Shown: in pieces, positions 11,088 through 63,380 of the stretch
How the letters are laid out: each line of letters begins with the position of its first letter
Numbering within the stretch: the first letter of the stretch is position 1
Source of the DNA: an uncultured Pleurocapsa sp.
GTDB taxonomy: Bacteria; Chloroflexota; Anaerolineae; Aggregatilineales; Phototrophicaceae
DNA: 64,000 nucleotides
Assembly: GCA_964614405.1 (NCBI GenBank)
Contig: CAZTLS010000012.1
Span: forward strand, 1,678-65,677
Direction: 5' to 3'
Made by a program: the position numbers and the translations under genes
The notes under the pieces: generated by a model
Database searches by the model: none
Told to the model about the DNA's origin: nothing
What the model saw: the letters and a program-made list of their open reading frames with translations, nothing else

Positions 11088-13229
11088 TTACCCTGCGCGA
11101 CCGACCAGTTCCACCGCGTCGATCTCGTTCCAGTTGCCGCCGATGCGCTGATCCAGCACGATCGTCACGGTATCGATCGGGGTGTTGACGCCGGTGATGT
11201 CTACCGTGAACACGCCTGGGCACGGGGTATTGCCTGGCGCGTCGGTGCTGTTCGGCAGGACGAACGTCTGCCCGGTGCGCGAATTGCCCACTTCCACGCG
11301 GATGATCGAGCCTGGGTTGTAGGTCTGGTAGATGTTCACCTGTGCCGGGATGACGGGGGTGGTGTAAGTCAGCGTCAGGCTGTCCTGACCGCGGCTGCTC
11401 GACGATGCCCACGCGCTGCTGATGTCACCGCAGGCGTTGGTGTTCGGTGCGCCGGTCGCCTGGGTGAAGCTCCAGCCGCTCGACCCGTACTGGCTGGTCC
11501 CTGTGGCGCTGGCTGCCCACTGGCGGATGGCTGCGCCCGCCGGGGAGGATGTCGCCGGGGCGTCGCTGAGCGAAACCAGGCTGTATGCGCCGCGACCGCC
11601 GATGCCGAGCTGGAACGCACCCGTCCCGGTGCGGCTGAAGCTGGTCGCCTCGATGATGTAGTTGCCACTGGTGGCGACAGCGAAATCACGAATGCGCGAA
11701 TTGAGCGAACCGAACTGCGCATCGCCGGAGTCGTCGTTGGTCACGAGAGGCTGCCCGTTGGGGTAGTTGGCTTCAGCGAACAGCGACAGGAAGGGGTCGA
11801 AGACGAAATTGACCGCTGCCAGTTCGAGGGTGATCACGTCGCCCGCCGCCAGATTGACGCGGTACGCCTGACGCGGGGCGTTCGTGGTCAGTTCGCCCTC
11901 GACGATGGCGCTGCCCGACACCAGTTCGGTCGGCACTTCGACGACGATCGGGGTCAGGGTGTATGCGCCGCGCCCGCCGATGCCCAGCTGGAACGCACCC
12001 GTCCCCAGTCGGCTCAGGCTGGTCGCTTCGATGATGTAGTCCCCGCTGGTGGGGATGGTCAGGGCGGCAATGCGCGAGTTGAGCGTGCCGAATGCCATAT
12101 CGCCGGAGTCGTCGTTGCTCGCCAGCGCTGCGCCGCTCGGATAATCGGCTTGGGCATAGATCGACAGGAAGGCATCGAATTCACGATTGACCGATGCCAG
12201 TTCGAGGGTGATCACGTCGCCCGCCGCCAGATTGACGCGGTACGCCTGACGCAGGGCGTTCGTGGTCAGTTCGCCCTCGACGATGGCGCTGCCCGACACC
12301 AGATTGGCGCGCGAGGTGATGGTGACCGGGATCAGGACATACGAGTTGTCTCCGCCGATGCCCAGTTGGAACGCGCCCGTGCCGATGCGGCTCAGGCTGG
12401 TGGCTTCGATGATGTAGCTGCCGCTGGTGGGGATGGTCAGGGCGGCAATGCGCGAGTTGAGCGTGCCGAACGCCATATCTCCGGAGTCGTCGTTGCTCGC
12501 CAGAGCTGCGCCGCCGGGATAATCGGCTTCGGCGTAGATCGACAGGAAGGCGTCGAAGGCGCGATCGACGGCTGCCAGTTCGATGGTGACGCGATCGCCC
12601 GCCGTCAGCTCGACGCGGTAGGTCTGCACCGGGGCAGTATTGGTCAGCTCCCCGTCCACGATGGACTTGCCAGACACCAGGTTGGTGGGGGTGGCGGGCG
12701 CTTCATAGCGGATGGTGGGCAGCAGCGTCTGCGAGAGGGTCGCGCCGGGGCTGTTCTGCACCACCTGCACCAGCACGAGGATGATCGCGCCGTCGATGTC
12801 CAGCGCGTACAGTTCAGCATAGCCGGACGGCACAGCCAGCGAACGCACCTTCGCCGTCACGCCGTTCAGACCATCCTGCGTGTAGGGGGTGATCGGCGCG
12901 CTGACGCGCAGTAAGCCCATGATCTCGCTGAGTGTCTGCTCCGGGTCGATCGGCGTCATGCCGATTTGGGCGAAAAAGCTGGGCGGGACGATCGACATGG
13001 CGACATCGGTCGGTGCGAGGGTCCCCTGCGAGTCGCGCAGCAGGGTCATGGCGGCGTCGCTGCTGCCCAGAATGATGCCGCCCTCCGGCGAGTTTTCTGC
13101 CTGCCAGCCGCTCGGCACGTTGACCGTCAGCCCGCCGTTCGAGTAGGTGCTGCCCTGTGCGGCAGCCATCGACGCCATGCCCAGCGCGCACACCAGCATC
13201 ACTGCCAGTGCAAAAAGAGACCGTTTCAT
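11088..13229 (-). CDS. Secreted protein with three tandem PPC (pre-peptidase C-terminal)-like repeats and a C-terminal discoidin-like domain
   Basis: Signal peptide MKRSLFALAV; three 126-aa repeats with FD(A/P)FLS..NDDSG..NSRI..SG.YIIEATS; C-terminal QWAASATGTSQYG..NEIDAVELVG. Confidence 0.8.
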   Translation of the reverse strand: MKRSLFALAVMLVCALGMASMAAAQGSTYSNGGLTVNVPSGWQAENSPEGGIILGSSDAAMTLLRDSQGTLAPTDVAMSIVPPSFFAQIGMTPIDPEQTLSEIMGLLRVSAPITPYTQDGLNGVTAKVRSLAVPSGYAELYALDIDGAIILVLVQVVQNSPGATLSQTLLPTIRYEAPATPTNLVSGKSIVDGELTNTAPVQTYRVELTAGDRVTIELAAVDRAFDAFLSIYAEADYPGGAALASNDDSGDMAFGTLNSRIAALTIPTSGSYIIEATSLSRIGTGAFQLGIGGDNSYVLIPVTITSRANLVSGSAIVEGELTTNALRQAYRVNLAAGDVITLELASVNREFDAFLSIYAQADYPSGAALASNDDSGDMAFGTLNSRIAALTIPTSGDYIIEATSLSRLGTGAFQLGIGGRGAYTLTPIVVEVPTELVSGSAIVEGELTTNAPRQAYRVNLAAGDVITLELAAVNFVFDPFLSLFAEANYPNGQPLVTNDDSGDAQFGSLNSRIRDFAVATSGNYIIEATSFSRTGTGAFQLGIGGRGAYSLVSLSDAPATSSPAGAAIRQWAASATGTSQYGSSGWSFTQATGAPNTNACGDISSAWASSSSRGQDSLTLTYTTPVIPAQVNIYQTYNPGSIIRVEVGNSRTGQTFVLPNSTDAPGNTPCPGVFTVDITGVNTPIDTVTIVLDQRIGGNWNEIDAVELVGRAG
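11547..12680 (-). repeat. Three intragenic tandem repeats, 378-bp period
   Basis: Equivalent Leu codons of LVSG at 12680, 12302 and 11924, each 378 bp apart; long identical DNA tracts. Confidence 0.9.
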
Positions 13230-13334
13230 CAAAACACCCTCCAGTCGTATGTGAGACGATGCCGTCACCATAGCACAGAGGGCGTTTCAAAAACGTTTCA
13301 TCCGTCGCGCAAAACGGGCTGCCGGGTGAAACGA

Positions 13335-13784
13335 TCAGGTGTTCTCTTCAGCGATGACTGCATCAACCCATTTTTCGATGAACACCTGCGGTTCGGTGAA
13401 GGCGCGGTGGACCGGGCAGCGCGTGGCGATGTCGAGCAGGCGGTCTTTCTGCTCATCGGTCAGGTCGCCCAGAAAAACGATGTTCTGGGTGAACTGGCGC
13501 ACATGCTGCGACTCGCCTGTATACTGGGGAACCTCTTCGCGCTTCAGGCGTTCGGTCGAAAGATCGATCTCCACGCCGCGCAAATCCCAGCCCTTACGCC
13601 CGGCGTACAGTTTGGCGGTGATCGCGGCGCAGCTCCCCAGCGCAGCGAGCATCAGCTCGGTCGGCTTTGGACCGAGATCAAGCCCGCCGTCGGCGATCGG
13701 CTCATCGGCGGTCAGGGTGAACTGGCGGATTTTGATCGTGGTGGTCAGGTTATCGGACAGGGCGACTCTGGCTTGCGTGGTCAT
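13335..13784 (-). CDS. OsmC/Ohr family protein
   Basis: ADEPIADGGLDLGPKPTELMLAALGSC and RCPVH (two conserved Cys). Confidence 0.92.
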   Translation of the reverse strand: MTTQARVALSDNLTTTIKIRQFTLTADEPIADGGLDLGPKPTELMLAALGSCAAITAKLYAGRKGWDLRGVEIDLSTERLKREEVPQYTGESQHVRQFTQNIVFLGDLTDEQKDRLLDIATRCPVHRAFTEPQVFIEKWVDAVIAEENT

Positions 13785-13876: not shown

Positions 13877-16231
13877 TCATGCCATGCGCTCAAAATCGAT
13901 GAACTGGCGCACTTCTTCGCTATCCAGCGGGCGACCCGGCGTGACGATCAGGTAGCTGTCCGCCCAGAGGGCGTCGGGCGTGACCTCCGGGTGCAGCGCG
14001 CCGATGAGCGCCGCCGATCGCGCTTTGAGATCGCGCACGACGCGCAGCGGCGACTCGCCGCCAGGCACATCGGCGAACACATACACCGCCTCCTCACTGA
14101 CCTCGATGTGGTGCAGCGTCCAGCCCGCCTCCCGAAGCTGAACATCCAGCCCGGCGCGCACCGCCCTCACCGCCGCGCTGCTCAGGCGGGAGTCGGCATC
14201 GCGCAGCAGCCAGACGCACGCCAGCGGATCGCGCGCGATTTCAGCATCGACGCGGGCGACGGGGAGCGGGGCGGGTGGTGCAGGTTCGACGACTTCCGGC
14301 ACAGCGCGCAGCGCCTCGATCAGGCGTGCCCCCTGACGGCGGATGTCGCCCATCGGCGTCGTGCCTTTGAAGATCAGGGTGAGCGTGCCGCCTTCGGTGC
14401 GGCAGGTGTAGAGCAGGTAGTCGCGTCCGGTATCCGGCTGGGTGACGAACTGCACGCGCGCATCGCGGCGGTCGGTCTCATGGGCGGAGAGGATGGCGGG
14501 CTGCAAGGCGATCAGCTCATCGGTGGGCATCCGCCCCGCCTGAGCGATGATCTCCCCGGCGCGCAGCAGCAGCGCGGCTTCGGCGGTCGTCTCCAGCGCG
14601 GCATGGGTGAGCGTGAGCGCCATCTGTGCGGTGGCTTCGCCGTGCGCGGGGGGCGGGGCGACGGGTTCGGGTAGGGCGGTCGGCGCAGGCGGGCGCGGGT
14701 CGAACGCCGCCATGCGCTCGAACTGGGTATTGAAGTCTTCGGTATACCATTCCCCCCATTCGTCATCGACCCCGGTCTCCAGCGAGAACGCGGGGACAGC
14801 GGGTTCGGGCAGGCTGGGGGGCGGCGGCGCAGGCGGGGGAGAAATGAACTGCTGGGTCAGGTCGCCGGCGCGCGGCTGTGCTTCCAGGCGCTCCGTCTCC
14901 ATGAGATCGGGGCGCGGCTCGAAGCGCTGCGCCTGCGATGCGCGGGTCGTCTGGTCGGGCAGGGCGGCATCCTGTGCTGCCAGCGCCATCGTCGCTTCTC
15001 TGGCGGCGCGCCACCGGGCGATCGCCTGATCGCGCACGTGGGCAGGCATGGGGCGAAAACGCGGGACGAACCCTGGAAACTGGGCTTCGAGGTCGTCGAG
15101 CAGTTCGTCGATCGAGAAATCGCCGCGCACGGCGGTCTGCTGGAGGGTGCGCTCCAGAATGGCTTTGGCGGGTGACTGTTCGGGCAGCGGATCGAACTCG
15201 AAGGTGGGCGTGATGCTGGGCAGCGGCGGCGCGATGACCGGGATGGGAGGCGGTGCGGCATCGCTGGCGGGGACCTCCACCGCGTCGCGGCGGCGGGCAG
15301 GTTTGAACAGGTCGGACGACTCTTCGTTCACCTGCTCGCCGCGCAGCAGTTTCAGCACGCGGTCGAAGCCGCGATCGCCCGCCCCGCTGAACAGCTCGCT
15401 GATCGTGCCGCCTTCCTGAAAGGTGGGCAGGGGCGGTTCATCGCGCAGAAGCTGCTGATAGCGCCCCATCGCATCATCGGCGGGCGACGGCTGAGCAGGG
15501 ACACGATCGGTCTCTTCCTGCGCGCCAAAACTCATCTCTGCCCCGCCGCGTATGATGAACTCCGCCATGCGCGATCCTGGGGTAGGGGCATCCTGGCGCA
15601 GCGCGTTGACCAGCGCGTCAAAGTCGGCACGGTGCTGGCGCAGCGGCGCGGCGACGGACTGCGGGTCGCTGGGCGTCGCGCCGTCGTCAGGGGCGGGATC
15701 GTCGTCAGGGACGGCATGGCGCGCCATGTCGCTGCCCATCTCGCGCAGCACCGCCGCGATGCTGTCGGTTGGTTCGGGCAGGGTATCGGGCGGCGGCGGG
15801 ATGGGGTCGTCCATGAAAAAATCGGGTTGCAGCAGCCCGTTGTGCCTGGCGGCATGAGGGATGCTGCGCGCGGGCTGTTCGCCACGCCACGCCTCGATCA
15901 GGCGCAGCAGGTCTGCCGGGCGATAATCGACGGGCAGCCCGGCGTCTGCACCGAGCTTCGCCAGCAGCTCTTCGCCTGGCGGAGGCACGACGATGATCAG
16001 CATCTCCGGCTGCACCATCCGCAGCCCGGCGATCGCCCCGGCAGCCGCCGCCGCGCCGAGGCTGGCGAGGTCGATCACGGCGGCATCCTGAGGATGCTCC
16101 TGGGCATACTCGATGGCGGCGTCCGGCGTGGTGAAGGGATGCACCTCACAGCGCGCCGCGCGTTCGATCGCCTGCTTGCTGGCGATCGCCGCGCTCAGCC
16201 TGCCGTGCAGGATCAGGATCGGCGTGATCAT
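13877..16231 (-). CDS. Multidomain protein: receiver-like N-terminus, disordered linker, Roadblock/LC7-like domain, degenerate IS200/Y1 transposase-like C-terminus
   Basis: N-terminal ILIL..DAAVID; C-terminal WTLHHIEVSEEAVYVFADVP..SP..VVRDLKARSA..LWADSYLIVT..EEVRQFI follows the IS200 TnpA pattern by eye. Confidence 0.7.
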   Translation of the reverse strand: MITPILILHGRLSAAIASKQAIERAARCEVHPFTTPDAAIEYAQEHPQDAAVIDLASLGAAAAAGAIAGLRMVQPEMLIIVVPPPGEELLAKLGADAGLPVDYRPADLLRLIEAWRGEQPARSIPHAARHNGLLQPDFFMDDPIPPPPDTLPEPTDSIAAVLREMGSDMARHAVPDDDPAPDDGATPSDPQSVAAPLRQHRADFDALVNALRQDAPTPGSRMAEFIIRGGAEMSFGAQEETDRVPAQPSPADDAMGRYQQLLRDEPPLPTFQEGGTISELFSGAGDRGFDRVLKLLRGEQVNEESSDLFKPARRRDAVEVPASDAAPPPIPVIAPPLPSITPTFEFDPLPEQSPAKAILERTLQQTAVRGDFSIDELLDDLEAQFPGFVPRFRPMPAHVRDQAIARWRAAREATMALAAQDAALPDQTTRASQAQRFEPRPDLMETERLEAQPRAGDLTQQFISPPPAPPPPSLPEPAVPAFSLETGVDDEWGEWYTEDFNTQFERMAAFDPRPPAPTALPEPVAPPPAHGEATAQMALTLTHAALETTAEAALLLRAGEIIAQAGRMPTDELIALQPAILSAHETDRRDARVQFVTQPDTGRDYLLYTCRTEGGTLTLIFKGTTPMGDIRRQGARLIEALRAVPEVVEPAPPAPLPVARVDAEIARDPLACVWLLRDADSRLSSAAVRAVRAGLDVQLREAGWTLHHIEVSEEAVYVFADVPGGESPLRVVRDLKARSAALIGALHPEVTPDALWADSYLIVTPGRPLDSEEVRQFIDFERMA

Positions 16232-16302: not shown

Positions 16303-17460
16303 TCAGGGCGACGGGTTGACGGTGATGCTGATGAAGCCGATGTTGTTCACCTCGCTGATCTCTGTCACCTGCGAGTCGGAGTCGGCACGCGCCTGAAGGG
16401 TGAACGTGCCCGGCGTGGTGAAGGTGATGTCCGCCGTCAGCGCGATCGTCTCGCCTGGGCGCAGCCCCGCCACCACGCCGAGCGCCATCGTGCCGCCAGC
16501 GGGCAGGCTGATCGTGTTGTTGAACTGCCCGGCGATGCCGCCCCCGGTGTTGGTGATCGTGACAGTGTAACGCCGTGTGACGGGCGTGTTGCCCGCGCCC
16601 AGCGCCACAACCGTTTCGCCCGTGATCGTCGGCACGACCAGATCGGGCAAGCCCGTCGTGGGCGTGGCGGTGGGCGGCTGGATGACGGTCGGCGTCAGGG
16701 TCAGGGTAGGCGTCCATGACGGGATGACCTGGCTGGTTGGCGTTGGGGGCAGCGGCGGGATGATCACCGACGAGCAGTTGCCGAACAGCGTGACGAACTG
16801 GTTGCTCACCCAGCCGGTCGTCGTGCCGACGCGCACCTGCCACCAGCCGTTATCCGGGGTGCGCCCGGTGATCGGGGCGACCGTGCCTGTGTTCAGCACC
16901 AGGATGCGCGGGAAGACGACATCCGGTCCGGTGCGGAGGTTGAGCGGCGCGTTGACCTGAAGGCGGCAGGTCAGGTCGATCGGGTTGGGCGGTGAGGTGA
17001 TGATGATCGGCGGCGCGGACGTGGCGGGCGCACGAGTGACGGTGGGCGGCGTGCCGACGTTCAGACGAATTTCAGCGGCAGTGCTGCTCACCGAGCCGCG
17101 AAAGGCGATCGCCTGAAGCAGCAGCGTCCCCATCTGCGTTGGGGTGTATTCAAACACGACGGTGAACACACGATCGCCGCCGGAATTGGCGGAGGTTTCC
17201 GAGCGTACCGCCAGCCCATTGGCGAGAAGCTGCACGCGCGTGACGCCAACGTTGTCGGTGGCGGTCACGCTGACCAGCACCACCTGATTGACGGCGACCT
17301 GTTCGCCATCGCGCGGGGAAGTGATGCTGACGGACGGCGGCACGGCGCTGTTGGCAGTGGGCGTGGCAGCGTTCTGGCTGGTCAGGTTGCAGGCTGCCAG
17401 CAGGAACAGCAGGGGGATAAGCGCCAGGGCGCGGCGCGAAAAAGACATGCGGGTCGTCAT
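16303..17460 (-). CDS. Lipoprotein with Ig-like, SH3b and CARDB domains
   Basis: Lipobox LLAAC; VSITSPRDG Ig-like domain; LNLRTGP..WWQV..GWVS SH3b; PDLVV..VTITNTG..DSDSQVTEISEVNN CARDB; Thr/Pro linkers. Confidence 0.85.
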   Translation of the reverse strand: MTTRMSFSRRALALIPLLFLLAACNLTSQNAATPTANSAVPPSVSITSPRDGEQVAVNQVVLVSVTATDNVGVTRVQLLANGLAVRSETSANSGGDRVFTVVFEYTPTQMGTLLLQAIAFRGSVSSTAAEIRLNVGTPPTVTRAPATSAPPIIITSPPNPIDLTCRLQVNAPLNLRTGPDVVFPRILVLNTGTVAPITGRTPDNGWWQVRVGTTTGWVSNQFVTLFGNCSSVIIPPLPPTPTSQVIPSWTPTLTLTPTVIQPPTATPTTGLPDLVVPTITGETVVALGAGNTPVTRRYTVTITNTGGGIAGQFNNTISLPAGGTMALGVVAGLRPGETIALTADITFTTPGTFTLQARADSDSQVTEISEVNNIGFISITVNPSP

Positions 17461-17554: not shown

Positions 17555-19240
17555 TCACCGGATGCGGCGGTCAGCGGGCTTGATCGGCGCGGGCGTGGCG
17601 TATCCCCCGGTCAGGCGCTGCATGGCGGCGTAGAAGGCGTCGTCATAGGCGCGCGTGCGGACGACGACGGGCATCGGCACGGCGTGCCCCATGATGATCA
17701 CCTGCTGTTTGGTGTCGAGGCGGCTGAGGACTTCGCGCAAGCCCGCCGCGCCGCTGACGCCCATCAGCACGGCGGTGATGTCACGCTCGTTATCCAGCAG
17801 CGCCGTCACGCGCGTCCCGATCTGGCTCATCACTTCCTCGTCGATGCCGCTCGGTCGCTGATCGACCACCAGCAGCGTCACCTTGTACTTGCGCAGTTCA
17901 CGGGCGATGATGCCGAAGGTCGTCTGGTTGGCGATCTTCGGGTCGAGGAATTTGTGCGCCTCTTCGATGACGATCAGCAGCTGCGGCGGTTCGTGCGCCT
18001 TGTCACCCAGCGCTTTCTCCACCCGTTCGATGTACAACTCGTGAATGCGGCGCGTCAGGTAGTTGGCGACCAGCATGTACGCCTCCAGCGAGTTGCCCCA
18101 GCGCCCGAACTCCAGCACCACACTGCGCCCGTTCTCGATGGCGTGCATGATCTGCGCCACGCTGTCGTTCGCTCCATCGCGCGCGAGGAAATGCCATTTC
18201 TCGAAACGCTGAAGCCGCCGCTGAAGCGCCGCCAGCGTGCCGGCGCGGTGCGGCGAGTCCGCTTTGATGGCATCGAACTCGGCTGCCCCGGCGTCGATCA
18301 GCTTCGCCACCCAGCGCGCGCCCCATTCCTTGCGGAGCATCCGCGCCGCGTCGAGCATCGCGTCGGACAGGTTCATGGTCACGCGCAGGCTTTCGAGGTC
18401 TTCCGGTTCGATCTCGTCATAGCCGATCTGCACGTCAAAATCGCTCTTGCCGCCGCGCCTGGCAGTCGATTCCGGGTCGAGCGAATACACGACCACCTGA
18501 TCCGCGCCGAGGAGCTGGCGCAAGCCCTTCGCCTGCACGCCGCGTTCATCACTCGCCGCCCAGCCGTAGTCGTTGTGCATGTCGAAGATGAGCGCCACCG
18601 CCTGCTTCTTGGCGATCACGCCCGCCAGCAGCAGCCGTGTCAGGAAGCTCTTGCCCGTGCCGCTCTTGCCGAACACGCCGATCGAGCGCTGCACGAGCGC
18701 TTTCAGGTCGAGATTGATCTGCGTGGCGTCCAGTTCGAGCGGCGAGCCGACGTGGAAATGCGTGGCGTCTTCAGGACCGAACACGGCGTTGACGTCGCCC
18801 GCCGTCGCATCGTAGACCTCCATGAAATGCCCAGGGATGGTCTTGACGGGCTTCGGCTTGCCCGCGTCTTCGCCTTCGCTGTCGATCGAGAGCAGCGGCT
18901 GCACGCTGATCTTGCCGTATGCCGCTGTGCCGCCGTAGACCGCCGCCATGAACGGATCGCTGAAATCGGGCGGGGCAGACTGGATGTCCGGGTTGGTATT
19001 GTCCAGCACTACATCGGTGATCATGCAGAAGAAGCGCTTCTTCTGCCCGCGCACCACCACATAGCGCCCGACGGCGAGCGTTTCGATCGGCACGCCGATG
19101 TCCAGCTTGACCGTCAACCCCTTGCTCAGCGAGCCGCCGACGATCACCCCCAGCCGGAAATCATCCGGGTTGGCGAGGAAGGAATCCCGCCCGCGCGCGA
19201 AAATCTGATCCAGGTCGTATGGCTGATCGCTGTACCCCAT
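17555..19240 (-). CDS. HerA/DUF87-family ATPase (HAS barrel plus P-loop)
   Basis: N-terminal beta-barrel, Walker A GKSGTGKS, FDMHNDYG, Walker B IVIEEAH, ARELRKY, DQRPS. Confidence 0.88.
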   Translation of the reverse strand: MGYSDQPYDLDQIFARGRDSFLANPDDFRLGVIVGGSLSKGLTVKLDIGVPIETLAVGRYVVVRGQKKRFFCMITDVVLDNTNPDIQSAPPDFSDPFMAAVYGGTAAYGKISVQPLLSIDSEGEDAGKPKPVKTIPGHFMEVYDATAGDVNAVFGPEDATHFHVGSPLELDATQINLDLKALVQRSIGVFGKSGTGKSFLTRLLLAGVIAKKQAVALIFDMHNDYGWAASDERGVQAKGLRQLLGADQVVVYSLDPESTARRGGKSDFDVQIGYDEIEPEDLESLRVTMNLSDAMLDAARMLRKEWGARWVAKLIDAGAAEFDAIKADSPHRAGTLAALQRRLQRFEKWHFLARDGANDSVAQIMHAIENGRSVVLEFGRWGNSLEAYMLVANYLTRRIHELYIERVEKALGDKAHEPPQLLIVIEEAHKFLDPKIANQTTFGIIARELRKYKVTLLVVDQRPSGIDEEVMSQIGTRVTALLDNERDITAVLMGVSGAAGLREVLSRLDTKQQVIIMGHAVPMPVVVRTRAYDDAFYAAMQRLTGGYATPAPIKPADRRIR

Positions 19241-24361: not shown

Positions 24362-24441
24362 ACCTCACCCCGGAAACCTGGCGGTTTCCTGCCCCTCTCC
24401 ATCGGTGAGGGGCGGTTGAGCGCAGCGAAACGGGGTGAGGT
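24362..24441. repeat. 80-bp palindromic intergenic repeat (REP/MITE-like), copy 1
   Basis: ACCTCACCCC...GGGGTGAGGT terminal inverted repeats and internal hairpins; reverse complement of the copies at 35757 and 45127. Confidence 0.9.
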
Positions 24442-24462
24442 CGGAGCATTTGCAGACGGACC

Positions 24463-26465: not shown

Positions 26466-27110
26466 TCAGGTGACGGGTTCCTTGTAGATGATGAAGCGCG
26501 CCATATCATCGCCTTTGGCGATGCAGGTGGACATATCGACGCGGAATTCACGCCCGCCCGATACCCACTTCAAGCCTTCCATCAGCAGCCCCTGCCCCAT
26601 ATAGCAGACGGGCTTGTCGGTGGTGCGCCCAAAGCACAGCACGCACTTGCGCTCCATGGTGTAGATGATGCGGTCGTCGCCTTCTTCATGCACGTTGCTG
26701 ATCTGGTCGGAGAAGTTGTTGAAGATGTTCGCCAGCGCCGGCAGCCCGACGCGCAGCTTGGCATTGAGGGGGAGGATGCGGCACGCCAGGTCGCCTGCGC
26801 CCGCCAGCGCGCCGAACGAGCGCAGCCCGCCCGCGAACAGCTTGCGCCCGGCGCGCAGCGCCATCGCGCGCCCACCGCGCGGACCGAACATGTCTTCCAG
26901 GGCGATATTCAGGGCGGTGAACTCGGCAAAGTCGAACTTTTTCTCCAGGTCATCGGGCGGCAGCGCATCGATGTACTGCGGCAGCTTCGCCATGTTCAGC
27001 AGGGTGTTCAGCCCGTTGCGCCCCATGATCTCTTCCATCGCTTCCATGGTGATGCGGGCGAACTTGTTGGGATAGTACAAACCGCTCAGCACGCGCTCTG
27101 TGTCTGCCAT
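26466..27110 (-). CDS. V4R (4-vinyl reductase) domain protein
   Basis: YYPNKFAR, GRNGLNTLL, GPRGGR..ALRAGR, CVLC..PVC..W.SGG..TCIAKG. Confidence 0.85.
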   Translation of the reverse strand: MADTERVLSGLYYPNKFARITMEAMEEIMGRNGLNTLLNMAKLPQYIDALPPDDLEKKFDFAEFTALNIALEDMFGPRGGRAMALRAGRKLFAGGLRSFGALAGAGDLACRILPLNAKLRVGLPALANIFNNFSDQISNVHEEGDDRIIYTMERKCVLCFGRTTDKPVCYMGQGLLMEGLKWVSGGREFRVDMSTCIAKGDDMARFIIYKEPVT

Positions 27111-27153
27111 CGAGTGTCCTTTCAAGAATCTGGGCGCTTTTCAGATATCCGTC

Positions 27154-28530
27154 TCAGCCCGCCATCACAATCAGCGGCGCGTCGGCATGTTCGGCGCGCG
27201 GAAGCCGCCCCTGCAAACTCCAGGGACCCGTCCAGGCGATCTCCACCTCGACCAGCTCACCGCGCCGATCCTGCACATCCTCAAAAAAGACCAGCTTGTT
27301 CTGAGGGGTGCGCCCGCGCCATTTTCCCTTGTGTTCATCCTCGACCAATACCTGAACCCGCTTCCCCAGGTACTGCCGGTTCTTCTCCGCCAGCACCCGT
27401 TCCTGAAGGGCGTTGAGGCGGTCGAAGCGTTCCTTTTTCACTTCTTCCGGCACATCATCGGGCATACGGCGCGCGCTGACGGTGTTGGGGCGCGGGCTGT
27501 AGCGTGCCAGATGCACCTTGTCCAGCTTCAGTTCTTCCAGCAGGTCATATGTCCCCTGAAACTGCGCGTCCGTCTCTCCACAGAAGCCGACGATGATGTC
27601 GGTATGGATCGCCACATCCGGGATGCGCGCCCGGATGTTGGCGACGAGCGCCCGATACTGCTCTACAGTATACCCGCGTTTCATGCGTTCCAACACCACA
27701 TCATCGCCCGCCTGCACCGGGACCTCGATCTGCGGCATGATGCGCGGCAGCTCCGCCACCGTGTCGAGCAGCTTGTCGCTCATCCAGTTGGGGTGGCTGG
27801 TCAGGAAGCGGATGCGTTCCAGCCCGGTTTCCTCAGCAGTGCGATGCAGCACCCGCAGCAGGTCTGCCAGGTCGGGTCCGTCGGGGATGTCCATGCCATA
27901 GCGATCGACGATCTGCCCCAGCAGGGTGACTTCCTTCACCCCCTGTGCCGCCAGGCTGCGGACGTGGTTGACGATCTCGCCGACGCTGCGGCTGCGTTCG
28001 ACGCCGCGCCGGAAGGGGATGATGCAGAACGAGCAGGCGTGCGAGCAGCCGTACACGACCGGCACATGCGCGCTGATCAGGCTGCCCTGCTCGTGGGCGG
28101 GCAGCAGCAGTTCGCCGTCCTGAAGCCGATCGCGCCGTTCACGGGCTGTCTCTTCCAGCGCCATCACCTCGGCTTCACTGAGGCGGGTTTTGAGAAAATC
28201 GACCATCGCTGCCGGGTCGGAAGGGGGCATGAACACATCGACATACGGCAGGCGCTGGCGCAGCGCCAGCGGGTCGCGCACGCCGACCAGACACCCCATC
28301 ACGCCGATCACCTTGTCCGGCTGCTGGCGCTTGATGTCGTTGAGCATCGCCAGCCGCCCGAACGCCTTGTCTTCCGCCTGCTGGCGCACCACACAGGTGT
28401 TGACGACGTAGATGTCGGCATCTTCCGGCACAGCCGCCGCCTGATAGCCCATGCGCTCCAGTTCGGAGGCGAGAAGCTGCGAGTCGGCGGTATTCATTTG
28501 ACAACCGAGAGTCCAGATATGGTACTGCAT
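27154..28530 (-). CDS. miaB: tRNA-2-methylthio-N6-dimethylallyladenosine synthase
   Basis: TLGCQMN, NTCVVR, radical SAM GCSHACSFC, RIRFLTSHP, TDIIVGF, YSPRPNT, TRAM domain. Confidence 0.95.
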   Translation of the reverse strand: MQYHIWTLGCQMNTADSQLLASELERMGYQAAAVPEDADIYVVNTCVVRQQAEDKAFGRLAMLNDIKRQQPDKVIGVMGCLVGVRDPLALRQRLPYVDVFMPPSDPAAMVDFLKTRLSEAEVMALEETARERRDRLQDGELLLPAHEQGSLISAHVPVVYGCSHACSFCIIPFRRGVERSRSVGEIVNHVRSLAAQGVKEVTLLGQIVDRYGMDIPDGPDLADLLRVLHRTAEETGLERIRFLTSHPNWMSDKLLDTVAELPRIMPQIEVPVQAGDDVVLERMKRGYTVEQYRALVANIRARIPDVAIHTDIIVGFCGETDAQFQGTYDLLEELKLDKVHLARYSPRPNTVSARRMPDDVPEEVKKERFDRLNALQERVLAEKNRQYLGKRVQVLVEDEHKGKWRGRTPQNKLVFFEDVQDRRGELVEVEIAWTGPWSLQGRLPRAEHADAPLIVMAG

Positions 28531-28666
28531 GATGTGCGTTATGCCGTCTGAGTCGATCACCTGTCACTAGTATGGTATTGTAGCGATCAGCAGGGCAAGC
28601 GTCAATCACGCAACGGCGTGCGTGAACGTGACAGGACGACCTGCCGGATCGTCCTGTCGCCGGGCG

Positions 28667-30940: not shown

Positions 30941-31014
30941 CGGGGCGTAGCGCAGCTTGGTAGCGCGCAGTGTTCGGGTCACTGAGGTCGTGGGTTCAAA
31001 TCCCGCCGCCCCGA
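30941..31014 (+). tRNA. tRNA-Pro(CGG)
   Basis: Cloverleaf with CGGGGCG acceptor, anticodon stem CAGTG/CACTG and loop TTCGGGT, T-loop TTCAAAT; CCA not encoded. Confidence 0.96.
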
Positions 31015-32075: not shown

Positions 32076-32084
32076 ACATCTATT

Positions 32085-32257
32085 CACACCGAGAGCGCAG
32101 CGCACACGCTGCCGCCGAAGGGGCAAGCCGATCCGCACAGGCTGGGGCGGGCGGGCGAAACTCTCAGGCTTCCGGGAGGTGTGAAGCGCGGTATGTTCTG
32201 AAACCGGGCGCACCGCCGCCCGTGACAGAGCGCACAGCAGCCTGCTGTGCGCTTTTT
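32085..32257 (+). promoter_or_regulatory. Glycine riboswitch (singlet) with overlapping intrinsic terminator
   Basis: GAGAG..GCCGAAGG.GCAA..AAACTCTCAGG..GACAGAG consensus upstream of gcvH; GCGCACAGCAG/CTGCTGTGCGC-T6 terminator overlaps the 3' end. Confidence 0.85.
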
Positions 32258-35756: not shown

Positions 35757-35836
35757 ACCTCACCCCGTTTCGCTGCGCTCAACCGCCCCTCTCCGATGGA
35801 GAGGGGCAGGAAACCGCCAGGTTTCCGGGGTGAGGT
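35757..35836. repeat. 80-bp palindromic intergenic repeat, copy 2
   Basis: Reverse complement of 24362-24441 with one substitution. Confidence 0.9.
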
Positions 35837-35838
35837 CT

Positions 35839-45093: not shown

Positions 45094-45227
45094 CCTCACC
45101 CCGGACCTCACCCCGTTAACCGCCCGACCTCACCCCGTTTCGCTGCGCTCAACCGCCCCTCTCCATCGGAGAGGGGCAGGAAACCGCCAGGTTTCCGGGG
45201 TGAGGTCGGGGTGAGGTCGGGGTGAGG
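45093..45227. repeat. 80-bp palindromic repeat copy 3 (core 45127-45206) with two extra terminal-repeat copies on each side
   Basis: ACCTCACCCC at 45093, 45105 and 45127; GGGGTGAGG at 45197, 45208 and 45219. Confidence 0.9.
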
Positions 45228-47864: not shown

Positions 47865-48241
47865 GTTCAAGCGCGCCAGGTGATCGCGGTTCGGCATTGC
47901 CGGGCTGAGGAAAGTCCGCACTCCACAGGGCACGGTGCTGGCTAACCGCCAGGCGGAGCGATCCGACGGCAGAGTGCAACAGAGAACAGAGTGCCGACGC
48001 GGCGGGGGCGCACCCCGCTGCGGGCGAGGGTGAAAAGGTGGTGTAAGAGACCACCAGCGCGATCAGCGATGGTCGCGGCTGGGCAAACCCCACCGGGAGC
48101 AAGGTCAAGCAGGCGCAATGGGGCTGCCCGTCCCGCGCCGGGTAGACTGCACGATGCGCGCAGCAATGCGCGTACCAGAGAGATGATCACCCCGTCCGCT
48201 TCGGCGGGCGGACAGAATGCGGCTTATCGGCGGGCTTGAAC
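47865..48241 (+). ncRNA. rnpB: RNase P RNA (bacterial type A)
   Basis: GAGGAAAGTCC, AGTGCAACAGA, GGGTGAAA.GGTGGTGTAAGAGACCACC, GGGCAAACCCC, ACAGAATGCGGCTTAT; termini GTTCAAGC/GCTTGAAC pair (P1). Confidence 0.96.
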
Positions 48242-48349
48242 ACGCTTTTGCGCGCCGCGATCAGATAGCGATGTGACCGTTGCCATACCTGCAACACCTG
48301 CGCTGTACAGTGACAGCATCGTTCACTGTCAGACCGGGAAGCGGATACA

Positions 48350-50264: not shown

Positions 50265-50313
50265 ACCTCACCCCGGAAACCTGGCGGTTGAGCGCAGCGA
50301 AACGGGGTGAGGT
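50265..50313. repeat. Internally deleted (49-bp) copy 4 of the 80-bp repeat
   Basis: Same ends as copy 1 but lacking 31 bp between two GCGGTT microhomologies. Confidence 0.88.
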
Positions 50314-54905: not shown

Positions 54906-54966
54906 GATGTGTGTGTCCTCATGCGGAAAAAAAAGCGTGTCGTGATGCCGTCATGCTATACTGAGG

Positions 54967-56180
54967 ATGACCGCACGGCAAGGATTGAGGGTTGGGCGAT
55001 GGGTGTGCAAAAAGTGCTGCTGACGGCGGACGCCTTCTGGAACCTGCTGGCGCTGCCCGAATTTGCCGATCGGCGGCTGGAGCTGATCGATGGGGAGATG
55101 TTCGAGAAGATGTCACCGACGTTGCAGCATGGCAGAACCGCCAGGCGCATCTACATCGCGCTGTCCACATGGCTCGTGCAGAATCCGATCGGCGAAGTGG
55201 TCTTCGAGGTCGATCACTACACGCCGGACGACCCGCACAACACCCGCCGCCCGGACATCTCGTTCATCGCTTCCGGGCGGGGCGATGCGCTCGGCGACGA
55301 ACCCGTGCCCTTCATGCCTGACCTCGCCGTCGAGATTCGTTCGCCCTCCAACCGCATGGGCGGAGCGAGCGGCTTGCGCGAAAAAGCGGCGTACTACCTG
55401 GCGCATGGGACGCGCATGGTCTGGCTGGTCGATGCCGGCGCGAAGCAGATCGAGGTCTTCACCCCGTCGGAGACGCGCACCCTGAACGAAACCGATATGC
55501 TCGACGGCGGCGCGGTGCTGCCAGGTTTCGCCCTGCCCGTGCGCGTCGTGTTCGCTGACCCGTAAGTTTGGAAACAGCGCTGAAAATGACCGCACGGCAA
55601 GGATTGAGGGTTGGGCGATGGGTGTGCAAAAAGTGCTGCTGACGGCGGACGCCTTCTGGAACCTGCTGGCGCTGCCCGAATTTGCCGATCGGCGGCTGGA
55701 GCTGATCGATGGGGAGATGTTCGAGAAGATGTCACCGACGTTGCAGCATGGCAGAACCGCCAGGCGCATCTACATCGCGCTGTCCACATGGCTCGTGCAG
55801 AATCCGATCGGCGAAGTGGTCTTCGAGGTCGATCACTACACGCCGGACGACCCGCACAACACCCGCCGCCCGGACATCTCGTTCATCGCTTCCGGGCGGG
55901 GCGATGCGCTCGGCGACGAACCCGTGCCCTTCATGCCTGACCTCGCCGTCGAGATTCGTTCGCCCTCCAACCGCATGGGCGGAGCGAGCGGCTTGCGCGA
56001 AAAAGCGGCGTACTACCTGGCGCATGGGACGCGCATGGTCTGGCTGGTCGATGCCGGCGCGAAGCAGATCGAGGTCTTCACCCCGTCGGAGACGCGCACC
56101 CTGAACGAAACCGATATGCTCGACGGCGGCGCGGTGCTGCCAGGTTTCGCCCTGCCCGTGCGCGTCGTGTTCGCTGACCC
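54967..56180 (+). repeat. Direct tandem duplication of 595 bp (54967-55561 and 55586-56180) with a 24-bp unique spacer
   Basis: Constant 619-bp offset; identical translations in all listed frames; spacer GTAAGTTTGGAAACAGCGCTGAAA. Confidence 0.93.
54999..55565 (+). CDS. Uma2 family (PD-(D/E)XK) endonuclease, copy 1
   Basis: ELIDGEM, RRPDISF, PDLAVEIRSPSN, EKAAYYLAHG..VWLVD, LDGGAVLPGF. Confidence 0.92.
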   Translation: MGVQKVLLTADAFWNLLALPEFADRRLELIDGEMFEKMSPTLQHGRTARRIYIALSTWLVQNPIGEVVFEVDHYTPDDPHNTRRPDISFIASGRGDALGDEPVPFMPDLAVEIRSPSNRMGGASGLREKAAYYLAHGTRMVWLVDAGAKQIEVFTPSETRTLNETDMLDGGAVLPGFALPVRVVFADP

Positions 56181-57090: not shown

Positions 57091-57095
57091 GGGTG

Positions 57096-57480
57096 TGGAG
57101 GTGCAGGGAGTCGCACCCTGGTCCGCTGGACTCGAAGCCGCGCTTCTACAGGTTTAGCTGTCCGTTGAGTCTCGCGGAGTGTAGCCCCGGACAGCCCGGT
57201 ACGCACTCCGCCAGCCGATGGTTCTTTGGTGACCGTTTATCGGCGTGACGATCACCGCACTCCACCATTAGTGACGCCCGCCGATCGATCCGGGTGGAGC
57301 CGAACCGGGCGGACGGCTGGGTTACTCTGACCCAGCACCCGCGCTTAGCGCACCTTAGGCGGCGTAAGCGAGAGCAGGACGACTGCTGTTGGCAGTTGAT
57401 TGCTTGCCCATTTTTACGTGGTTGAGCGCCACGACCTGCCACACGGAGTCAGCCTCCAACGTCGAAGCTGGTTCACCCCC
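57096..57480 (-). ncRNA. ssrA: tmRNA; tag peptide ANSSRPALAYAA* (57393-57355)
   Basis: Minus strand 5' GGGGGTGAACCAGCTTCGAC, 3' CAGGG-TGCGACT-CCCTG-CACCTCCA; G3-U wobble; ATCAACT-GCC resume context and a tag ending in AA. Confidence 0.95.
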
Positions 57481-63307: not shown

Positions 63308-63380
63308 GGGCCTGTAGCTCAGCTGGAAGAGCGCTTCAATGGCATTGAAGAGGTCAGGGGTTCGAGTCCCCTCTGGTCCA
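63308..63380 (+). tRNA. tRNA-Ala(GGC)
   Basis: Cloverleaf with anticodon loop ATGGCAT, G3:U70 Ala identity pair and T-loop TTCGAGT; U6:U67 mismatch; CCA not encoded. Confidence 0.96.

Follow-up and report, generated by a model that had tools for sequence, protein, structure and literature searches.

A conserved single-copy Anaerolineae protein with a degenerate receiver, a Roadblock domain and a catalytically dead IS200-type transposase domain

What becomes of a transposase domain that sits in a host protein without its catalytic residues? The question is raised by one gene in a stretch of 64,000 nucleotides (nt), referred to here at its full length as the window (contig CAZTLS010000012.1 of assembly GCA_964614405.1, positions 1,678 to 65,677), from an organism deposited as an uncultured Pleurocapsa sp. 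and placed by GTDB in the class Anaerolineae of the Chloroflexota. The open reading frame (ORF) at 13877-16231 on the minus strand is intact, begins with ATG and encodes 784 amino acids (aa); its N-terminus, MITPILILHG, agrees in alignment with the starts of the closest relatives. A sequence-only reading of this DNA, made by a model without database searches, had described four parts in the ORF, and all four are present as claimed. We concluded that the gene encodes a conserved single-copy protein of the Anaerolineae, in which a degenerate receiver, an acidic linker and a Roadblock domain are followed by a dead IS200-type domain. The parts are as follows.

13877-16231, minus strand: whole coding sequence, 784 aa (P0001), with pseudo-receiver, disordered linker, Roadblock domain and dead Y1 domain
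15866-16231, minus strand: receiver-like domain, aa 1-122 (family profile, alignment)
14642-15865, minus strand: Pro/acidic low-complexity linker, aa 123-530 (composition)
14288-14641, minus strand: Roadblock/LC7 (MglB-like) domain, aa 531-648 (profile, AlphaFold2, Foldseek)
13880-14242, minus strand: catalytically dead IS200/IS605 TnpA (Y1/HUH) fold, aa 664-784 (sequence models, profile, AlphaFold2, Foldseek)

The fusion of a dead Y1 domain to a Roadblock and a receiver-like domain was recovered by profiles for all three domains, and by AlphaFold2 (AF2) models and Foldseek searches for the Roadblock and Y1 domains, the two that were modeled; the receiver was judged from sequence. Among 5.8 billion proteins searched, 58 full-length relatives were recovered, with 35-62% identity across the last 245 aa; they are named "transposase", "response regulator", "RayT" or hypothetical in the databases. 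Orthologues from the same genus are merely ~41-62% identical in the best-conserved part, so that synonymous sites are saturated; conservation was judged domain by domain, in place of the ratio of nonsynonymous to synonymous substitution rates (dN/dS). The best-conserved parts of the protein were the Roadblock domain and the Y1 domain (64% and 62% mean column identity, vs 24% overall).

The C-terminal TnpA domain and its active site

The last ~120 aa had been assigned by eye to the IS200/IS605 TnpA pattern, and this assignment was confirmed at the level of profile and predicted fold. With the window protein as the only query, the match to Pfam Y1_Tnp (PF01797) was borderline (E-value (E) 1.6e-4; 22.2 bits, below the cut-off of 23; residues 689-778); NCBIfam transpos_IS200 gave E 8.4e-7 (29.3 bits, cut-off 55), and the Sulfolobus IS200 transposase of PDB entry 2f4f gave E 1.5e-4. 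A profile built from the last ~120 aa of 36 full-length relatives (A3) matched all eight distinct IS200/IS605 TnpA sequences of the PDB end to end, with E from 1.6e-11 to 2.4e-5, and had no other PDB match below E 0.1. PF01797 is also recorded for many orthologues, and one distant orthologue reaches E 1.1e-14. The AF2 model calculated from the A3 alignment has a predicted local distance difference test score (pLDDT) of 94 and the order strand-helix-strand-strand-helix-strand-helix, the same beta-alpha-beta-beta-alpha-beta core plus C-terminal helix as in the IS200/IS605 TnpA structures (2f4f/2ec2, IS608 2a6m/2vjv, ISDra2 2xm3). Foldseek ranks 1-30 in the PDB were all TnpA (Sulfolobus, ISDra2, IS608) or RayT, the best match having E 5.7e-7 and a template modeling (TM) score of ~0.7; the possibility that the domain lacks the Y1/HUH fold was thus not borne out. 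The LW..SY motif of TnpA is kept, and a K-x-R-S-A segment is present in the window's family. These results indicated that the C-terminal domain is homologous to TnpA, as judged from sequence, and has the same fold in the model.

The positions that carry catalysis in TnpA are occupied by other residues.

14081-14089, minus strand: A715-V716-Y717 in place of the H-U-H metal-binding motif (alignments)
13901-13903, minus strand: F777 in place of the catalytic Tyr (alignments)
13889-13891, minus strand: E781 in place of the metal-binding Gln (alignments)

The metal ligands of TnpA are two His and a Gln (PMC6006769), and Tyr to Phe is an engineered inactivating change in ISDra2 TnpA (PMC3479197). 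In every alignment A715-V716-Y717 fell on the His-Ile-His of 2f4f, 2ec2 and 2a6m and F777 on the catalytic Tyr, which agrees with the replacements of both motifs that had been read from the window alone. Across 189 family members, the first His position is occupied by Tyr (138), Phe (35), His (11), Cys (3) or Ala (2), the Ala of the window protein being a rare variant; the second His position by Tyr in 188 and Met in one, and never by His; and the catalytic Tyr position by Phe (153), Tyr (34) or Leu (2). The Gln position, four residues after that of the Tyr, is mostly Glu. More distant members read Y-V-A, W-V-N, S-V-V, Y-V-Q or Y-L-L, with His at neither HUH position. In stand-alone TnpAs of Chloroflexota (129-166 aa, n=20), H-U-H is kept in 18 and Y---Q in nearly all. 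Thus, the alignments indicated that both metal-binding His, the nucleophile Tyr and the metal-binding Gln have been lost in the family, and in a fixed way.

ISDra2 TnpA (2xm3) itself reads H-V-H. Tyr-Val-His was seen in two stand-alone homologues, DR_0177 (PDB 2fyx), an uncharacterised protein closely paralogous to the TnpA of ISDra2, and a Chloroflexota TnpA (L086, G836:C20), and Tyr at the first His position therefore also occurs outside the fusion. We know of no active Y-V-H enzyme, and the change from first His to Tyr was rejected as a feature of an active TnpA.

The Roadblock domain, the linker and the receiver-like domain

Is the remainder of the protein what its sequence had suggested? 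For the Roadblock/LC7 (MglB-like) segment, the answer came from three sides. A profile of residues 531-648 of the family (A2) had MglB structures as its best PDB matches (E 3e-4 to 1e-2 across MglB chains). The AF2 model has a pLDDT of 84 and the order alpha-beta-beta-alpha-beta-beta-beta-alpha, and Foldseek placed MglB of Myxococcus and Thermus (6hjm, 1j3w) first, with E 1.6e-5 and a TM score of 0.67, followed by LAMTOR and the C-terminal domains of Rag. The NCBIfam MglB model matched the window protein weakly (E 0.24).

The segment between the Roadblock domain and the receiver had been described as a long acidic, Pro-rich linker, and its composition bears this out: aa 123-530 contain 15% Pro and 17% Asp plus Glu, with a net charge of -33. 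Three motifs within it are conserved.

15542-15622, minus strand: linker motif 1, aa 204-230, FDALVNALRQ...FIIRGG, with S210, P216 and R218 nearly invariant
15332-15451, minus strand: linker motif 2, aa 261-300, EPPLP..GGTISEL..FDRVLKLLRGE (conservation in relatives)
15041-15175, minus strand: linker motif 3, aa 353-397, PAKAILE...FSIDELL..LE.QFP...RPMPA (conservation in relatives)

The nearly invariant residues of motif 2 are E265, P266, P269, G275, T276, L280, F289, V292 and G298. Motif 3 closes with QPLPSW in most relatives (RPMPA in the window protein), and no covariation of this motif with the lost active site was seen.

A receiver-like fold with the motif DAAVID had been proposed for the N-terminus, and it was recovered at the level of sequence: the whole-family profile matches receivers (RegX3 at E 1.6e-9; ~160 receiver chains), and the phospho-acceptor Asp, D54 in DAAVID (nt 16070-16072), is retained in the window protein. 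PF00072 is recorded for many orthologues; the window protein alone has no Pfam match to a receiver. The remaining receiver residues are degenerate, a point absent from the sequence-only reading. In the window protein the acidic pair is H9-G10, the Thr/Ser is Val and the Lys is absent, and all 55 aligned members have His-Gly or Arg-Gln in place of the acidic pair and lack the Lys that precedes the conserved Pro. As read from this alignment, the N-terminal domain is a pseudo-receiver.

Distribution, origin and neighboring genes

Did the gene arrive recently with an insertion sequence (IS), or is it an established host gene? Its own genome (4.15 Mb, 98% complete) contains one match only. The family is present in 158 of the 201 sampled genomes of the order, nearly always as a single copy and in ORFs of 600-1400 aa, and it also occurs in several other orders of the Anaerolineae. 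Complete small genomes of two genera are without the gene, and the gene can thus be lost. At E<=1e-30, 186 clusters (50% identity) were found among 1.84 billion cluster representatives, and in all 150 listed of these 186 the Y1 domain lies at the extreme C-terminus. Hidden Markov models of the three domains found the order receiver-Roadblock-dead Y1 in 22 of 23 order-level loci, the other one having no detectable receiver. At three loci outside the order but within the class, the encoded protein is shorter (422-502 aa): two consist of Roadblock and dead Y1, and the third has a receiver-like N-terminus before the Roadblock domain, seen by eye only. With a broader profile, long ORFs of this kind were detected in several families of the Anaerolineae, and elsewhere only short canonical TnpAs. 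In a maximum-likelihood tree, a single branch separated 24 dead domains from 24 canonical TnpAs (Shimodaira-Hasegawa approximate likelihood ratio test (SH-aLRT) 96); the tree is compatible with a capture of the TnpA domain that apparently took place once.

No tnpB lies beside the gene, which is flanked by genes for an OsmC protein and a lipoprotein; no explicit search for subterminal IS hairpins was made. The statement that the locus is not an IS and lacks tnpB thus held up, on the single copy, the host-gene neighbors and the order-wide orthologues. The checks proposed with it, of copy number and of conservation across the Anaerolineae, returned one match in the own genome, almost always one copy elsewhere in the order, order-wide presence and a constant architecture. 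We concluded that the family is an old, vertically inherited, single-copy protein of the class Anaerolineae.

The gene neighborhood shows a link that the sequence-only reading did not cover. The gene for DNA polymerase I (Pol I), polA, lies directly downstream and co-directional in 17 of 27 full loci of a first sample and in 26 of 37 loci of a second, in which two more loci have one gene in between; the distance from the stop of the gene to polA is mostly 30-150 bp. The pairing is also found in other orders, with different upstream genes (L013-L015, L076). In the window the link is broken: an OsmC gene follows, and polA is on another contig (C13:19608-22436) behind unrelated genes. A rearrangement has removed the polA link in this genome. 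The neighbors considered here are the following.

13335-13784, minus strand: OsmC-like gene, found here on the downstream side where most relatives have polA
16303-17460, minus strand: upstream lipoprotein with Big_7, SH3_3 and CARDB domains, conserved across the order
26466-27125, minus strand: V4R-domain protein (~210 aa), 72-88% identical between genera, in the conserved upstream cluster
27154-28560, minus strand: MiaB-like radical-SAM methylthiotransferase, which heads the conserved upstream cluster

The order-wide upstream genes encode the MiaB-like radical-SAM enzyme, the 210-aa V4R protein and the lipoprotein. The link of the gene to the upstream lipoprotein gene is kept in the window, where a ~9-kb block (a HerA-like ATPase and others) parts the lipoprotein gene from the V4R gene. 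The HerA-like ATPase (DUF87 plus HAS barrel, 17555-19240, minus strand) heads this block, and the interruption occurs in this genome only. In the closest subclade, a gene for a PAS-HisKA-HATPase kinase lies 15-21 bp after the gene and before polA (L004:10650-12302; L097:5675-7339), an odd neighbor for a receiver without Mg-binding residues; elsewhere in this subclade the downstream side is rearranged. A promoter and terminator scan around the gene found nothing above chance.

Several other features of the window were recorded. A secreted protein of 727 aa (ORF at 11088-13271, minus strand) contains repeated PPC (pre-peptidase C-terminal) modules, which are encoded by three tandem 378-nt repeats that are 66-79% identical (11556-12746). 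At 54961-55260 and 55580-55879 lies a pair of direct repeats of 300 nt each, 99% identical and 619 nt apart. Rfam matches at 47868-48242, 57093-57480, 32078-32190, 30941-31014 and 63308-63380 correspond to RNase P RNA, tmRNA, a glycine riboswitch and two tRNAs.

Proposed role, alternatives and known systems

What, then, might the captured domain do? We consider it fairly probable that the TnpA domain serves as the non-catalytic C-terminal module of a dimeric protein scaffold, with a role tied to Pol I. As its active-site positions stand, the protein would be incapable of cutting or joining DNA. Roadblock domains of the MglB type are obligate dimers. IS608 TnpA is likewise described as an obligate dimer (PMC3597680). 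Because both kinds of domain dimerise, the C-terminal half would offer protein partners a double dimer platform within a homodimeric scaffold, with the pseudo-receiver and the linker motifs as putative docking sites. The lost active-site cleft, now with Tyr/Phe-Val-Tyr on the strand and Phe on the helix, probably accommodates the C-terminal helix or a peptide, rather than metal and DNA. For most relatives, the gene and polA would make up a two-gene unit in which the gene comes first, and it is because of this unit that a tie between the role of the family and DNA polymerase I is probable, in replication or repair; the pairing suggests that the role touches one of these processes. Candidate partners encoded in the own genome are three stand-alone Roadblock proteins, one MglA-like GTPase and V4R proteins. 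Of the three Roadblock genes, one adjoins a V4R paralogue, and the neighbors of the other two are unrelated.

Side observations were made on these candidates. The sequence-only reading had called for a search for MglA-like GTPases: there is one in the genome (C46:9605-10147, equal to L008:1366-1908, with matches to ATP_bind_1, Ras and Arf), but it is on another contig and unlinked to the gene. It directly follows the gene of a DUF4388 protein and has no adjoining Roadblock gene; a linked MglA was accordingly rejected as a candidate. The only V4R paralogue of this genome (C6:89516-90115, minus strand), on another contig, lies next to a receiver-GGDEF gene and one of the stand-alone Roadblock genes (C6:90140-90610), and the pairing of V4R and Roadblock genes recurs.

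The same data were weighed against other explanations. The names "transposase" and "RayT" carried by relatives would fit a recent fusion by IS200 insertion, a transposase pseudogene in decay or a transposase that remains active with an unusual site. We regard this as almost certainly wrong, and the fusion and the pseudogene were rejected: the gene is single-copy with conserved flanking genes and no tnpB, orthologues of the same constant architecture are found across the order and at the level of the class, the tree is compatible with one origin, the Y1 domain is among the best-conserved parts, and the residues that replace the catalytic ones are invariant in turn. A conventional response regulator, whose Roadblock and Y1 output is switched when a histidine kinase phosphorylates D54, would account for the near invariance of this Asp, for the Pfam Response_reg matches of many relatives and for the kinase gene at 15-21 bp in two loci of the window's subclade. 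The substituted acidic pair of all 55 aligned members and the missing Lys, together with the Val in place of Thr in the window protein, speak against it, and the kinase neighbor is limited to a small subclade and absent here; we therefore hold this explanation to be improbable.

A further explanation retains nucleic acid as the ligand: the dead Y1 domain would still recognise hairpins or flaps of single-stranded DNA (ssDNA), or RNA, and work alongside Pol I, either at repeats that form hairpins or on the lagging strand, regulated by the Roadblock and receiver domains. It draws on the position of polA, immediately downstream and co-directional in ~70% of sampled loci and across orders; on IS608 and ISDra2 TnpA, which act on the lagging-strand template (PMC6006769); on the Y1 fold, intact at high confidence in the model; on the K-x-R-S-A segment retained in the window's own family; and on a genome rich in a multi-hairpin repeat of 81 nt. 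However, nearly every member has an acidic dead Y1 domain (mean net charge -7 and isoelectric point 4.8, n=189, vs +6 to +8 in three crystallised TnpAs), and the only positions conserved across the class are P60, W93, W41, A94, Y97 and F114, which belong to the hydrophobic and aromatic core. No basic residue or basic patch of the Y1 domain is conserved class-wide, and the K and R of the K-x-R-S-A segment are Met and Glu in other families of the order and class. The repeat neither flanks the gene nor is co-distributed with it, and the polA link is broken here and in close relatives, yet the gene is intact. We judge this explanation unlikely. The earlier suggestion of an exapted hairpin-binding module, and with it hairpin binding by the dead domain, is not supported.

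The repeats themselves, noted from the window at 24362 and elsewhere, are real. The 81-nt element lies at 24362-24442, 35757-35837 and 45127-45207, with a partial copy near 50265-50313; it has 11-nt terminal inverted repeats and two inner hairpins, and is predicted to fold into a three-way junction (-52.5 kcal/mol). No Rfam family was found for it. The 4.1-Mb genome carries at least 66 dispersed full-length copies with 92-100% identity, and none of the repeats flanks the gene within ~8 kb. At high identity the element occurs in this genome only, and 14 of 61 genomes of the family contain diverged copies; since the gene is present in ~80% of the order, the two are not co-distributed. The proposal that the window repeats are ligands was therefore not borne out, and they were rejected as conserved ligands, being absent from most relatives that carry the gene.

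A protein scaffold is thus more likely than a DNA binder, because of the acidic domain, the conservation of hydrophobic positions only and the mismatch with the repeats. Several points count against the scaffold. Pfam Robl_LC7 (PF03259) has no match to the window protein at E<=10. The dimeric state is carried over by analogy from related domains, and the partners are candidates only; in none of the loci examined is a small GTPase gene linked to this gene. The polA link is absent from the window, so that the family context may not hold for the window copy, and a polA neighborhood suits a nucleic-acid role at least as well as GTPase signaling. The near invariance of D54 leaves phosphorylation or a phospho-mimicking switch conceivable. 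In addition, the crystallised TnpA homologue DR_0177 (2fyx) has a net charge of -2, and an acidic net charge is compatible with a local DNA- or RNA-binding surface.

How does the family compare with known systems? Unlike IS200/IS605 TnpA, it is without His-U-His, the nucleophile Tyr and the Gln, is acidic rather than basic, and is a single-copy, vertically inherited domain without tnpB, fused C-terminally in a protein of 600-1400 aa. TnpA-REP, or RayT, of E. coli (4er8) is likewise a host-kept, low-copy Y1 derivative. In RayT, however, HUH and Tyr are present with the Y---NP signature, the nuclease is active and REP sequences, its substrates, flank the gene, whereas the family is dead, of class 1 (IS200-like) rather than class 2, and without flanking repeats; 4er8 ranked only 29 in the fold search with the Y1 model. 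The nuclease-dead TnpB-derived repressors (TldR) are likewise dead IS200/IS605 proteins recruited by the host, but they derive from tnpB and not from tnpA, and are RNA-guided and DNA-binding; the family has no such guide RNA. On the signaling side, MglB and MglC share the Roadblock fold, MglB being the best structural match, and RomR of Myxococcus has in common a receiver, a Pro-rich linker and an acidic region, a likeness that is architectural only. The C-terminus of RomR docks the Roadblock protein MglC (PMC12719032), and the family's layout recalls a RomR to which a Roadblock domain of the MglC/MglB type has been added. Unlike the Myxococcus polarity module, the family has all parts in one polypeptide, no adjacent mglA and an extra dead transposase domain.

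In the literature searched, no paper was found that joins Y1_Tnp and Roadblock or treats this fusion. The classification of TnpA-Y1, in the portion available, covers members with the HuH/Y core only and there mentions neither a receiver fusion nor an inactive member (PMC6006769); a review of recruited mobile-element genes names IS200/IS605 only for TnpB and IscB. Within that literature, this is the sole TnpA without catalysis that is fixed as a structural or regulatory domain across a bacterial class. The known host-kept TnpA derivatives (RayT) are still active nucleases, and the family is the dead TnpA counterpart to TldR. Hundreds of database entries called "transposase" or "RayT" need correcting.

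The recurrent pairing with polA raises the question of what a scaffold of Roadblock domain and pseudo-receiver does beside Pol I in filamentous Chloroflexota, and the window copy, in which the polA link is lost and all else is intact, offers a natural control. It is conceivable, though we rate it as quite unlikely, that the dead TnpA domain recognises lagging-strand ssDNA structures and recruits or gates Pol I through the Roadblock and pseudo-receiver scaffold. If this were true, a domesticated transposase would be a replication- or repair-coupled sensor of DNA structure, conserved across the Anaerolineae.

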